From Stylophora pistillata (Eukaryota), in contig NW_019217893.1 of the NCBI RefSeq assembly GCF_002571385.2, positions 554,911-618,910 on the forward strand: DNA of 64,000 nt. The letters are read 5' to 3'. Below, in pieces: positions 30,739 through 51,716 of this stretch. The position numbers were made by a program, and so were the translations under genes. Under the pieces are notes generated by a model, which was not told the DNA's origin, ran no database searches, and saw nothing but the letters and a program-made list of their open reading frames with translations. Position 1 is the stretch's first letter, and each line of letters starts with the position of its first letter.

Positions 30739-33700
30739 ATTCACTTATTTATGAATATTTATCCCATTCCCTCCCAATATCTCTTTAGTAATTCTCCCTA
30801 CTGTCTGCTTAAGAACTGTTATGATGCAAGTTTGGAGAATTTAATTTGGGATCAGCTAATAGCCCCTTAATTCACATTCCACTTTATTCTCAGCACTAGT
30901 CTGTGATTTTGTATTGATAGTAAAAGAAATTCTTGGTCATTCATGGGAATGGAAGGGTTAAGATGGTTAGTCCCTTCCTTGTTACAGCTTTACAGATTTC
31001 TCTTTCCTTACCTATGTGATTGATGTGTTACCCATTAGAATATGTATGAATTTGACTAGCTGGGGTTTGGAGCAACAACACACATTGTCTGTTTTAATTA
31101 GCTTTGTTAACTAGCTCTGTTATGTGTTGTAGAATGATCTGGTCCGAGAATTGGATGGACATGTGCTGAAGTGTGTTAAGGATCAAAATGGGAACCATGT
31201 GGTGCAGAAGTGTATTGAGTGTGTTGACCCATCTTCACTTCAGTTCATCATTGGAGCTTTTCAGGCACAGGTATTAGTTTATTTTAAAAGCAAACTTGGT
31301 TGTGATCTGTTGTCAGGTTTTACGTCAAATGAACATATGTTGATGTCTGTGATGGTAAAACATGCAGAAAAAATTGTTTGGGAAAAAAAAAACTAAAGTC
31401 AACAGGACCTATAACCTTTGGCAGCATTAATTGCACAAAGGTTGGTGGAGTTTAGAAAATCAGTGAAGCATAATAATGTTTAAAACCTCAACTAGTGTGA
31501 GGTAATCTAATTGGTTATTTACAATGATACAAATCCAAGACTTCTGGTAAGTGAGTTGAATTGCTTCACAATTGTTTGGTAAAGTCATTGATATATTTTC
31601 CTTAGGTGTCAAGTGGTTGAAAAATTAGTTTTACTTCCAAAGTTCCTGCTTTGTATTTTGTTTTTTCTTTGATGTTAGTGAATACATCTTAAAATTAATA
31701 TTGTTTATTATCACCTATCCTTGGAGACCCAGGGGCTGTGAGTCTATTTCAAGTTCAGGGCAGAAGAGCCCCTGGGGACGTTGTCTTACGAGACTAGTTC
31801 CAAATGGTNNNNNNNNNNNGCCAGAAGGGCTAATTTAAATTTAAACAAAAGAATATTTATACGGCAGCTATTTATGAAAGTGGTCTATTATATGGCTGTG
31901 TCCTACATGCCAATTTTTTGTATTCTTTGTACCTTTTATTTCTCGACCGGTCTAGATGCTAGTCTAGATGGGAAAATCTAGACCACTTTCAATATTGATT
32001 TCAGCCAATCAAATTCGTGAATTAGGTAGTTTCCAGTCCTTGTGAGACACAGCCATATAATAATATGCATTATTAATTAATCATTCAAAGGCCTTTTCCT
32101 TGGATTTTTTCAGCCTTTTAAGTGTTGATTAGACTCAGAGGCCCTGCTAAGGGATCTTATTATGATTAGTATCATTTAAGGGTTCCTCCAGGAATTTTTG
32201 TTGCTAATCTGCCCTTTCGGGCTCCAAAGGCCTTGTTTTGGGATTTTGATACGATTTACAGTAACTGTTGTAGTTAAGAGTAGACACTTACCCTCTTCTA
32301 ATTCTTGCCACATTGCTTCTTTGGTTGTGCCCCTCATTTTAGCATATTTAGTTGTAGTTAAGAATAGGCTTACCCTCTTCTAATGCTTGCTGCATTGCTT
32401 CTTCTGTTGCGCCCCTCATTTTAGCATATTTAGTTGTAGTTAAAGTAGGCTTACCCTCTTCTAACGCTTGCCACATTGCTTCTTCGGTTGCGCCCCTCAT
32501 TTTAGCATATTTAGTTTATCTTTTTTTCTTTTTTTCTTTTTTTCTTGTTTTCTTGTTTTTTTGGATTTTGTCTCTTGTGTTTTGTCCATTGTTTTCTTTG
32601 TAGCTCGGTTTTTTTTTATCATCCTTTTATTAGCACCAGTTCATTAGTCATCACATGTAATTACATAATCGCTAGCACTTCATTCCTATTTAAAGCTATT
32701 TTTTTAAAAAAGTTGTAAATAACTGAGGAAGGTCTTTGACCAAAATGTTTTTATTAAAATTTTCTATCTCTTTTACCTCAGAATTTGTCCATCCTCGCAT
32801 TTTTTTGAAACTTTGTACATACACATATACATATATATATATATATAACATGTGATAGGCAGGAAAAAATCAATCAAATACATTTTGTTTTGTTTTTAAG
32901 CCAAAGGTAGATTTCCAGATAATGTTGGTATGGATACTTGACTCTGCCTGTCTAGACATTCAGATCTAGGATTCTAAGTCATCTGTATTTGATCAGGTTT
33001 CCCATTCTGTGGAATTAGTGTTTGATGGTATAGGTCATGCGTAATGAACTATTTGGTCATTAGGATATTTCTTGCAATGTGTAACCTTGCTAATTAAAAA
33101 GCAAAGTTTTTCCTTTTCCATATCTTTGTAAAACAAAACCAAAAATAGTACATGGAAATGTCTTATTCATGATATATCAATAGTTCTTTATTTTAAGTAA
33201 AAAAATAAATGTATGGATGTGTTTTTGTTGTTGGTGTGTAGCAACTTGTTGCCTGTGGGGAGATGGTTACGTGGGGATGTTCAATGATCAATTACAAGTC
33301 ATTTAATGGAATTAGTTTGGAATGTGTTTTAATCAGGTATGTTTGACCGAGATCAGTCCGGAACTATCAGTTTCCAAGAATTTCAACAGCTGTGGCAGTA
33401 TATTCACCAATGGAAGGGTGCATTTGACAGATACGATTCAGACAGATCAGGAGCTATAGAGTCTCAAGAATTACATCAAGCTTTTGCTCAAATGGGTTTC
33501 AATGTTTCAGCAAATTTTGTCAACCTTGTAGTTACCAGGTACCTACAGCTTTTTATGTATGAGTGTAGAGTGGTTACTCTTTACTTTTAAACTCCTCTAT
33601 TTTTTAAACTAAAAATGCTTGTATTCCACTGGCTCAATTTCCTCCTCTTCACACAAGTAAGGCTCAAACTCTGCACCCCTGGGGCACAGAGGAAAGTCAA

Positions 33701-36700
33701 ATGCCAGTGGGTTGCCCAGAGGGGGTTGGGGGATGTTGAAGCTTCAAATTAATAGGCACATAATCTATTGAAGTCACAGAATAATATTGTATGTTGGGGT
33801 AATGTCTAAGAGAGAAAATGAACATTCCCAGTTAGCTCAATTGGTTGAACGCCAGACTGTTGTGTGGGCTGAGGTCGAGGGTTCAAGCCCCAGCCGGACA
33901 ACACTCAGGGTCTTAAAAATAACTGAGGAGAATGTGCTACCTTTCCATTGATCCGGGGAGAAAAAGGGGCTTATTAATCCACTGGATAACACAAACCATA
34001 TAAATGATTTCTGGTTTTATTCGTTATATTAAGGAAAACATTACATAGAATATTAGATAGGGCAAACTACAGGGCAAACTACAACATAAGCAAACTACAG
34101 TGATTAATTGCATATCATCGACCACTTACTTCTGTGACAATATCCAGCAGATTATTCCTAGTCACTCGTAAACACGGGGTGGCAGTTCAAGTGGGCATCT
34201 GGTTGGCAAAATCATATGAAACGCCGGTCAGCGAGAAAACAATTTAGCACGGAACAATTCCTTCTAAAATGAACTTTTAACATGTTGCGTGATCTTACAA
34301 AGTTACTAATCCTAGGTGTATCATGAACTTAATGAAAAGGGAAATTAATTGTCAATCCATTATGACTCATATCAAAGTATATACTTTTCTCAACGAAACA
34401 TCTATAACATCATGAAATGGATAGACATTCTAGTCTTCTCGGATAAGGATGAGTAAACCATAGGTCCCATCTCCTGCATCTATTAATAAGTTAATTTGGT
34501 TTGGCAGGGGATGTTAAAGAACCCACATCATGAGATCACTGTGATGTGGTCTGGCCTGTTTACTGGGAACTGGGGGGAAGGGGGCATCTGTTAGATTCAC
34601 CTTTATTTCATTGTAGACTGCTTAGCAGAAAATCTGAGCAGAAAAAAAATGGGTTCCTTAACTTACTGTACAAACTGAGAAAATGAGGTTAGTAAGGTAT
34701 TTTTTAAATCTCTGGGTTCAAATGGGGGGGGGGGGATATCTGTGCATACTGTATGTTAAATCACTAAATAAATTGTTTTTAAAAGATGGTTTTTGAGCCA
34801 TTTGTTCCCCCTTTAATGTGGCAAATTGGTAATATTGCTTTAACATGTTGACTTACCCTTAGTTTACTTGTCACAAGTATTTTGTTTAGTTTATTTACTC
34901 TGTTCATCAGGTTTGATCAACTTGCTCGTAGAAGCTTAAAGCTGGATAGTTTTATCCAGTGCTGTGTAATGCTGCGAGGACTGACAGATGCTTTCCGAGC
35001 AAGAGACACAAGCATGAATGGCAATATCACCATTAGTTATGAAGACTTCATGTGTATGGTTTTGTTGAATAAGCCTTAAACTTGTATTTAGACTGGATGA
35101 AAACAATATTATATGCCCTTTTCACAACACACTCATAGTGATAAATTTAAGACTTAAACTGAGTGTACATTTTTCATCTTTGAAATTACAAACTAGGTGT
35201 TCCACATCCAATTTGGACAGCTCCTTAATCAAAGCTTTGTAGAATTATTGGCTGGGTGGTGTTAAATGACCAGCCAAAAGGCTGACATCCATTGGTCATG
35301 TTATGTCCTCAACAACACCCCTCCCACTTCTGTTTAAGTGTAGTTAAGCATTCATCCTGCAGAGTTCGGTTTTCAAATTCATCTGGATTAGTCCTGAATC
35401 GTTTACCTTTTTAGAAACATCACAAAAATGAAAGTGTGAGAGGAAGGTTCTTTTAGACTGAAAATTTGTTCCATCCACATTAGTATGGATAGGGGCTGAA
35501 ATACATTGGCCTGTGAAGCCTCATGATTGAATAACAAAGGGCTATTCCAAGTGTTAACTCTATGTAATGCTATGGTGTCATTTAGTTCATAGAACTTTAC
35601 CTGTAAAAAATTATACTAAGTAAAAGCTACCCAGGCAACCTCTCAACAGTATTTATTTTAGAAATGAGCAGACAATTAACTATTCCCTTTAAAATTGGAT
35701 ATCCACTAACTGTGTAGTTAGACGATTGCAAGTGCAGTTTTGAGAGTTTAAGTAATTATAACCTAGATGTTTGAAATTAATAAAACTCTCTGATCACTTA
35801 TTCATGTCATAATCCAGTTTTGTTTATTTTGAGTTATTTAATTAGGGTGACATAGTCACTTAGGTTGACCGAAACAACCTTTTTTGAAAAAAGAAATGGG
35901 AAGATCTTTCCCACTGGAAAAACTGTCAAATAAGTTAAATATGCACATAGTCAAAGACCTTGTGTGATTTTTTCATTGTGTAAGACCCTTCAGTTTCACT
36001 CAGTTCCTTGAATTTATTTGGATGACTTGAAAGAAACACTGTAAACCCGGCTGTGCCGTTGCAGCCAGTGATTATTGTTTAGGAGCTATTCCTTTCTTAA
36101 CTTCTGAAAAAGGATAACAGATGCCAAAGATTTACTGTGTGGTTACTCAGGAAATTGCACAAAATAGCTCTCAATGACTTTTTCATAATTATTTTGGAAA
36201 TTTCATGCTTGCAGCTGGCAGTTTTACAGCACCATCTCTTGTTTTTGGTATTAAATGTTGTCATTGATAAGCCAAACCCCTGATTTGTTACAAAAATTAA
36301 AGAAAAAACTAAGGCTACGTCATGATGTACTATCACTTAATGTTGCATGAGTTTTCTATGCCATTGTAAGGCTTAGTTCGTGACTTGAAATGTTTTTTTT
36401 TTTTTTTTCACTAAGCCAAGTTGTTTGTATTTTTACTTGGAGCTGGATCTCTTAAGGAAATTATGATTCATCTGGATGAATCCGGATTTTATGCTTTAAT
36501 TCTGCTGACTTAAATTTATGGAGAAATGTTCCCAATATTTGTCATGCCACAAATTCCTGTTTCTTTTAATTTTTTGTCCACCTTACTGCAGATGAATGCA
36601 ATAGATTGTGATTGTGCATGTTAAGTTGTAGATATATCATTTATATTGACCTACTGTGACTTGGAAAGAAAGTGTTTAAGAAGGATTTAGTTTTCAAATG

Positions 36701-51157: not shown

Positions 51158-51716
51158 TAGACCACTTTCATAAATGGCTGCTGGATTAATATTCTTTTGT
51201 TTAAATTTAAATTAGCCCTTCTGGCCTCGCTTGTCTACCAGCATTTAAATTTGACCCACACATGTCAAGGGTGAGTGACAAATGAGCCTGGGTCTTCCCA
51301 GGCAAGACTTCGTTATATAGCACGATTTCATGTTTAAGGGAAGCTCTTATGGGAGGGTGGCACTTATTTGAGAAAAAACTGCAATTATATATCAGCAACT
51401 AAATGATATGAAAGGAAACTAATAAATGTATACATCTGTTATAGACAGTAGCTTAACCTTTTCACTCCCAAGATCTGATTGTTAATTCTCCCCTCTAACT
51501 CCTAGACATTTCCTGGTAAATTAGTAGGGAGAACCTGTTGTTGGATCAAGATAACTTCTACTCAATAAGTTTGAGCATTCTAATTACCTATTAACTTGAT
51601 AATGTATGAATTTTAGAGGGAGAAGTATTATACTAAATGACATTTCACTTGTGGAAGTCAAAGGGACAAGGTAGCAAATAACTACACACAGGTGTGATAT
51701 ACCTTTTAAAACTTAC

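Follow-up and report, generated by a model that had tools for sequence, protein, structure and literature searches.

A split PEF1-like gene in the genome assembly of the coral Stylophora pistillata is very probably the product of a misplaced contig

Results

The stretch of DNA analysed here (the window) comprises 64,000 nucleotides of the coral Stylophora pistillata (NCBI RefSeq assembly GCF_002571385.2, contig NW_019217893.1, positions 554,911 to 618,910 of the forward strand). Proteins encoded in the window agree in every letter with named records of S. pistillata, a pocilloporid coral. As assembled, it contains three entangled genes: a Pumilio gene and a penta-EF-hand gene that we call PEF1-like, both on the plus strand, and a minus-strand gene that we call DUF4587-like (Table 1). 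A sequence-only reading of the window had proposed that a block of about 9.9 kb, carrying parts of the latter two genes, sits inside Pumilio and belongs near position 51233, most likely because of mis-scaffolding, with a haplotype deleted for about 10 kb as an alternative. Exon mapping agrees on the content of the block, which holds PEF1-like exons 3-4 and DUF4587-like exons 8-12.

The PEF1-like exons 3 and 4 precede exons 1 and 2 on the same strand, as that reading had seen. Taken in the order 1-2-3-4, the four exons have GT-AG boundaries throughout and encode a frame of 231 residues with no internal stop, and moving the block restores collinearity with an intron 2 of ~3.5 kb. Exon 4 is followed by an expressed 3' untranslated region (UTR) that extends to ~35765, judged by RNA depth. 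The predicted protein has a Gly/Pro-rich N-terminus and then EF-hand repeats, and matches EF-hand families above the cut-off. Its close relatives are variably named peflin-like or PDCD6-like in their source records; we use PEF1 as a working label for a protein whose sequence features are those of the penta-EF-hand family.

Transcripts and relatives both back the corrected exon order. The cluster to which the PEF1-like protein belongs has nine members; four are full length (231 residues), and these four come from Logan contigs no longer than 1,439 nt. One protein, P0138, which was found on three contigs that are each within this limit, equals the corrected-order frame at 231/231 positions. We read the contigs with the full frame as spliced mRNA, judged by their size. 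The two named S. pistillata members are partial, with 109 and 139 residues (XP_022788155.1 and XP_022788154.1), and both models lie on one record of 717,754 nt. The shorter corresponds exactly to exons 1-2; the longer consists of exons 3-4 preceded by a stretch of 17 residues placed in exon 2 (49252-49301). In contrast to these two partial records, the peflin or penta-EF-hand protein of three Pocillopora species is a single whole model of 230 residues in each (XP_027051388.1, XP_058954922.2 and CAH3156227.1), with exons that should be collinear given how annotation works. The P. damicornis protein is identical to the PEF1-like protein at 213 of 231 residues and has the same exon blocks by tblastn.

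The minus-strand gene is interrupted at the same place. A model of 12 exons, all with GT-AG boundaries, yields precisely the named record P0167, and five of these exons (8-12) lie in the block, a correction to the earlier reading. As assembled, the intron 51716>41271 measures 10,446 nt; with the block moved it shrinks to 900 nt (plus 4-6 nt absent at the junction), so the predicted fall from ~10.4 kb to ~0.9 kb is recovered. The other ten introns of the gene span 79-1,279 nt. Three of the nine Logan members of this gene were mapped, and each connects exon 7 with exon 8; a script with the block moved to 51233 found every exon of P0138, P0162 and P0163 collinear. The earlier name C21orf58-like rests on sub-threshold matches to DUF4587 (PF15248), at 15-18 bits against a curated cut-off of 27 in three of five proteins, with no match in the other two. 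The nearest Atlas cluster (0.91) is 77% DUF4587, and the protein is likely a distant relative; the domain is one that we take to be tied to C21orf58. Comparison of synteny in relatives, which had been suggested as a check, places the peflin-like and DUF4587-like accessions next to each other in P. damicornis (RMX39775/RMX39776) and P. meandrina (CAH3156227/CAH3156228), and in the third Pocillopora species the models of both genes lie on a contig of the same nucleotide count. At its other end, the DUF4587-like gene starts at 55946 (minus strand), head to head with a carboxylase-like gene that starts at ~56899 (plus strand); the two starts lie within ~1 kb of each other and likely share a promoter.

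The Pumilio intron that holds the block spans 31271-42929 (11,659 nt), and splicing of its two flanking exons keeps the frame through the PUF repeats. Foreign exons do sit in a Pumilio intron, as had been claimed; counted among the eight coding exons mapped, this intron is the fifth, where the sixth had been named. Plus-strand RNA depth is zero in four of four bins over 37823-40490, a region that Pumilio pre-mRNA would cross if the assembled order were real; the sign is weak, given that introns have little depth anywhere. On its Pumilio side, the block also splits a second element, which was absent from the sequence-only reading and has terminal inverted repeats (TIRs) at 31717-31808 and 42557-42651. 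This split suggests that the true Pumilio intron probably runs from 31808 through unassembled sequence to ~41689. Downstream, the Pumilio 3' UTR (44480-46860, plus strand) is long (~2.4 kb) and expressed, and RNA molecules terminate at 46832 and 46857.

Ns occur at just two places in the window, 31809-31819 (11 N) and 41688 (one N), and they bound the block, 9,868 nt from 31820 to 41687, on its left and right sides, respectively. The junction at 51233/51234 is free of N, as had been stated, and the letters common to its two sides number one to three (G or TTG, according to which variant of the repeat is compared). Both ends of the block fit this one other position in register. At the left end, 51155-51233 aligns with 54427-54505 of an intact miniature inverted-repeat transposable element (MITE) and 31820-31888 aligns with 54545-54613 of the same copy, in the same orientation. 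Measured against this copy (54427-54613), 39 nt are absent between the halves, in agreement with the earlier estimate of ~40. The intact element is short (187 nt), non-coding and present in many copies, has long terminal inverted repeats and folds into a single long hairpin (z = -17; none of 200 shuffles folds as well). The missing 39 nt correspond almost exactly to the hairpin loop. No clear target-site duplication of the MITE was seen by eye. Summed contig depth is very high in the bins that hold the MITE, and in the three DNA runs the loose ends at 51233 run on as a normal MITE in 11, 16 and 23 contigs, most of them from other copies.

The fit of the right end goes beyond what had been observed before. 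We compared the contig sets X1 and, from one sample (S2), X2 and X4, all DNA, and ~2% of RNA run X22 over 31820-51819. Five of the 15 joints listed connect 41684-41687 with 51231-51234, with 4-8 letters between, and they occur in all four runs. The right block end and the flank starting at 51234 thus belong to a single repeat family, of which each carries one half, with 4-6 nt absent when they are joined. Joint depths reach 2,848, compared with ~110 for unique DNA in X1; joints of this type come mostly from copies elsewhere and establish register only, not a locus-specific bridge. We considered the 41687-to-5123x joints as locus-specific proof and rejected them: in RNA they carry 94 and 16 reads on both strands, far above local intron depth.

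The corrected order also reunites two inverted arms of a presumably Penelope-like element, as had been anticipated. The arms pair at 31883-32353 with 50229-49768 (91.7% over 471 nt) and at 32433-32820 with 49852-49492 (86.2%), and they would stand ~1.1 kb apart. Between them in this order lies a GIY-YIG remnant (50372-51013, minus strand; 21.4 bits against a cut-off of 22.6).

Read depth over 31820-41687 had been set as a check for a heterozygous deletion, which would halve it. The length-weighted depth of unique contigs inside the block relative to outside is 0.89 in X1, 1.01 in X2 and 1.09 in X4, computed from the 24 pieces listed and with contig depth as a rough measure; in X2, for example, depth is 27.5 over 34578-41409 and 28.2 over 44119-47193. 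Low or absent X4 depth over 35155-39156 was left out of the evidence because a filter drops records. Two alleles are present within the block. In the PEF1-like 3' UTR, where RNA shows two alleles at 35202, 35468, 35492 and 35532, reads divide 46/95, 59/136, 60/136 and 66/139 at four sites, with no departure from one half (p 0.15-0.84), and X2 and X4, although from the same sample, differ at 39437. Furthermore, among the 34 positions covered by the 40 rows listed there are six with two alleles at which the window letter is neither: 35532 and 39437 in the block, and 43130, 43606, 46093 and 47033. At 35532 the window letter occurs in 0 of 145 RNA reads. The simplest reading is that these letters were likely ambiguity codes later replaced by arbitrary letters; if so, the codes at 35532 and 39437 imply that the assembled individual had two copies of the block.

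Table 1. Positions of the genes, repeats and assembly junctions discussed in the text
Feature	Position in window	Strand	Basis or remark
Pumilio gene	21868..44480	+	Exon mapping; PUF repeats
TIR element, left arm, cut by gap	31717..31808	.	Self-comparison
N11 gap	31809..31819	.	Letters of window; split TIR element
Block, probably displaced	31820..41687	.	Most likely one contig; inferred place between 51233 and 51234, orientation unchanged
Right arm of split MITE	31820..31890	+	Alignment
Inverted arm of Penelope-like element	31883..32820	.	Self-comparison
PEF1-like exon 3, within block	33337..33538	+	GT-AG model
PEF1-like exon 4 to stop, within block	34911..35079	+	GT-AG model
DUF4587-like exons 8-12, within block	40686-41270, 39841-40017, 39597-39662, 38945-39037, 37612-37665	-	GT-AG model of P0167
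Left part of high-copy repeat, continuation starts at 51234	41617..41687 (left edge approximate)	+	Contig joints
Single-N gap, right block end	41688	.	Letters of window
TIR element, right arm	42557..42651	.	89% to left arm
PEF1-like exon 1, coding	48247..48328	+	GT-AG model
PEF1-like exon 2	49057..49299	+	GT-AG model
Partner inverted arm of Penelope-like element	49492..50229	.	Self-comparison
Left half of split MITE (left arm and few loop letters)	51155..51233	+	Alignment; hairpin folding
Junction without N, probably a false join	51233..51234	.	MITE left half meets right half of another repeat
DUF4587-like exons 5-7	53288-53399, 52213-52307, 51717-51784	-	GT-AG model of P0167
DUF4587-like exons 1-4	55863-55946, 55699-55783, 54994-55055, 53904-53967	-	GT-AG model of P0167
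DUF4587-like gene, extents	51717..55946 (exons 1-7) and 37612..41270 (exons 8-12)	-	
Intact MITE copy (ruler)	54427..54613	.	Alignment and folding

Discussion

Our results provide strong support for a model in which the block is a correctly assembled contig that was placed one gap too early, ~10 kb from its proper position, and the hole that it left was falsely closed at 51233. The repeat register at both ends, the collinearity of the exons and the read depth bear out the original proposal of mis-scaffolding. Chance agreement is not a credible explanation because two repeat halves, the exon orders of two genes and their splice phases all point to one position. The true order is most likely Pumilio (plus), PEF1-like (plus) and DUF4587-like (minus), each spliced in cis and the last two tail to tail. 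The split of the PEF1-like locus would then very probably be an assembly artefact that conceals three ordinary genes.

How such an error could have arisen is suggested by the sequences at the breaks. Short-read assembly graphs collapse inverted repeats, and contigs stop at hairpin loops and high-copy repeats. Both ends of the block and the Pumilio gap are sites of this kind. We envision a scenario in which the contig broke at the MITE when its inverted arms collapsed in the graph, with the lost 39 nt representing approximately the loop. If 51233 and 51234 were joined, or their neighbours ordered, first, the 9.9-kb contig would have had mate-pair links on both sides and no slot to fill. It could then have been set in the nearest upstream gap, itself a break in an inverted-repeat element of the Pumilio intron. 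The join itself would most likely stem from a merging or gap-closing step, or from a chimeric library molecule, acting on the one to three shared letters. In a study of assembly errors, mate-pair libraries are described as a source of hidden scaffolding errors that leave conserved genes fragmented (PMC9635638). The cases presented there resemble this locus in that contigs break at repeats, are placed in the wrong order and yield a conserved gene annotated as fragments. They differ in being mostly errors of orientation, whereas here the orientation is right, the error lies in the order and one junction is free of N.

Several observations weigh against this model. Gap closers usually need more than one to three shared letters. 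Among the 15 of 79 joints and the 24 pieces listed, none spans 51233/31820 or 41687/51234 in a locus-specific manner. The short side of the DNA joints between 41687 and 5123x is only 21-24 letters, and none of the 15 joints is an RNA splice joint that would connect exons 2 and 3 directly. A repeat-to-repeat joint from 32064 to 41650 has single-copy depth, and joints of this type can come from other loci. Moreover, five RNA molecules end at 33221 on the plus strand (depth 19), 116 nt upstream of PEF1-like exon 3, and 21 contigs contain a 122-residue frame that starts at the first Met of exon 3 (P0136, encoded by a contig of 5,126 nt). Retention of intron 2, contig breaks or a short isoform begun within the intron would each explain these features, which lean slightly toward a separate transcript of the 3' half of PEF1. 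The junctions as assembled are likewise unbridged among the listed pieces, where an unbroken match over 51233/51234 would not count as a joint.

If the assembled order were real, back- or trans-splicing would be required to make the PEF1-like mRNA. The case that asks most of it, in which both chromosomes carry this order and 48247-49299 is joined in trans to a separately transcribed 33337-35079, predicts the whole mRNA that exists and could accommodate a possible 5' end at 33221 and the 122-residue frame. A whole mRNA alone cannot distinguish misassembly from trans-splicing; the DNA ends do. Trans-splicing does not account for the repeat halves being in register, for the two gaps or for the whole models in Pocillopora, and the lack of plus-strand RNA over 37823-40490 argues weakly against it. 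Judged indirectly, the non-collinear order does not appear real in the DNA, since its breaks fall at gaps and a single move mends them. In Drosophila mod(mdg4), mRNA exons are likewise reported not to be collinear in the reference (PMC13490949, PMC6237743). In that gene the arrangement is real and the 3' exons have their own promoters, whereas the non-collinearity here is bounded by gaps and vanishes after one move. The literature that we found holds no usable statement on trans-splicing in anthozoans, and the passages of PMC3273482 on the subject concern Hydra spliced leaders only. We consider trans-splicing extremely improbable and, under mis-scaffolding, it is not needed. Scarcely more probable is a rearranged haplotype, in which the 9.9-kb segment was excised and reinserted in the Pumilio intron, breaking PEF1 on one chromosome. 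Such a history would yield a join without N while leaving the block at full depth and with two alleles; however, each new junction would have to fall exactly on an assembly gap, with 39 nt lost at one and 4-6 nt at the other, neither end of the block is the terminus of an element, and no mechanism is evident.

Deletions of the block fare differently depending on how many cells carry them. An N-free join with an orphan contig nearby is the textbook outcome of assembling a heterozygous deletion, and the assembler could have taken a deleted haplotype and parked the intact 9.9-kb segment close by. The locus resembles this known pattern in its join and in the position of the segment, but such a deletion would bring half depth and a single allele. 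Whichever run underlies the assembly, such a constitutive deletion is therefore unlikely, because depth is not halved (ratios of 0.89-1.09), both sample S2 and RNA run X22 show two alleles within the block, and the window letters at 35532 and 39437 match neither allele, which would imply two copies. The deletion haplotype that had been raised as an alternative thus finds no support in either DNA or RNA, and we regard it as having only a very small chance of being correct. It is also unlikely, to a somewhat lesser degree, that the block is misplaced and the join at 51233 is nonetheless a real deletion in a minority of colony cells, made by a break at the MITE loop and repair on one to three letters with loss of both 3' ends. 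The absence of N would fit this idea, as would the position of one end where the loop of a strong hairpin begins; a minor allele would escape contig depth, and few shared letters at a junction are compatible with microhomology repair. Yet assemblers seldom choose a minority path, none of the listed records shows the deletion, and the ends at 51233 continue as a normal MITE, mostly in other copies. Were it true, it would represent structural mosaicism driven by a MITE hairpin and caught in a coral, with the 3' ends of two genes lost in a cell lineage.

Misplacement of the contig has consequences for annotation. The named records of 109 and 139 residues carry the same split, and counts of genes, reads or EF-hand proteins would see two partial peflins. 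The other effects at this locus are an intron falsely drawn out to 10.4 kb and genes that falsely appear nested within Pumilio. The combination found here, an N-bounded block with in-register repeat halves elsewhere, full depth and two-allele sites, could serve as a reusable sign of scaffolding error. In addition, letters that match neither allele at polymorphic sites could give rise to spurious substitutions or stop codons in other parts of the assembly. A literature search found no paper on this locus, which supplements could list, and no long-read assembly of S. pistillata among the 15 of 18 entries listed. In metagenome contigs, 32 nt of the right flank taken as an exact pattern had no matches, and the exon-8 protein gave no related loci among 234 pattern matches.

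Other repeats and duplications in the window

The contig that follows the block starts with a 355-nt exact duplicate (28042-28396 = 41689-42043), which holds a DEAD/RecQ-like helicase fragment (PF00270) and forms part of an inverted-repeat element whose neighbouring parts are only 88% alike. This suggests a further local assembly error. At position 41848 nearly all contigs differ from the window, and only sequence at single-copy depth (18.3) in X4 agrees, which hints weakly that the assembly re-used sequence for one copy of the pair.

Just upstream of Pumilio, at 20641-20977 on the minus strand, lie decayed open frames that we assume resemble the N-terminus of a piggyBac-type transposase. At the start of the window (1-1026), inverted arms at 1-260 and 767-1026 (95.8%) enclose reverse transcriptase- and endonuclease-like frames of what is presumably another Penelope-like element. 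An intron of the carboxylase-like gene contains a decayed reverse transcriptase of the long interspersed nuclear element type (58496-60566, plus strand; PF00078). The gene, which from its translation we take to encode methylcrotonyl-CoA carboxylase beta, also carries a tandem exon duplicate (61521-61637 / 61633-61749, 96.6%) that could be either a true exon duplication or an assembly artefact.

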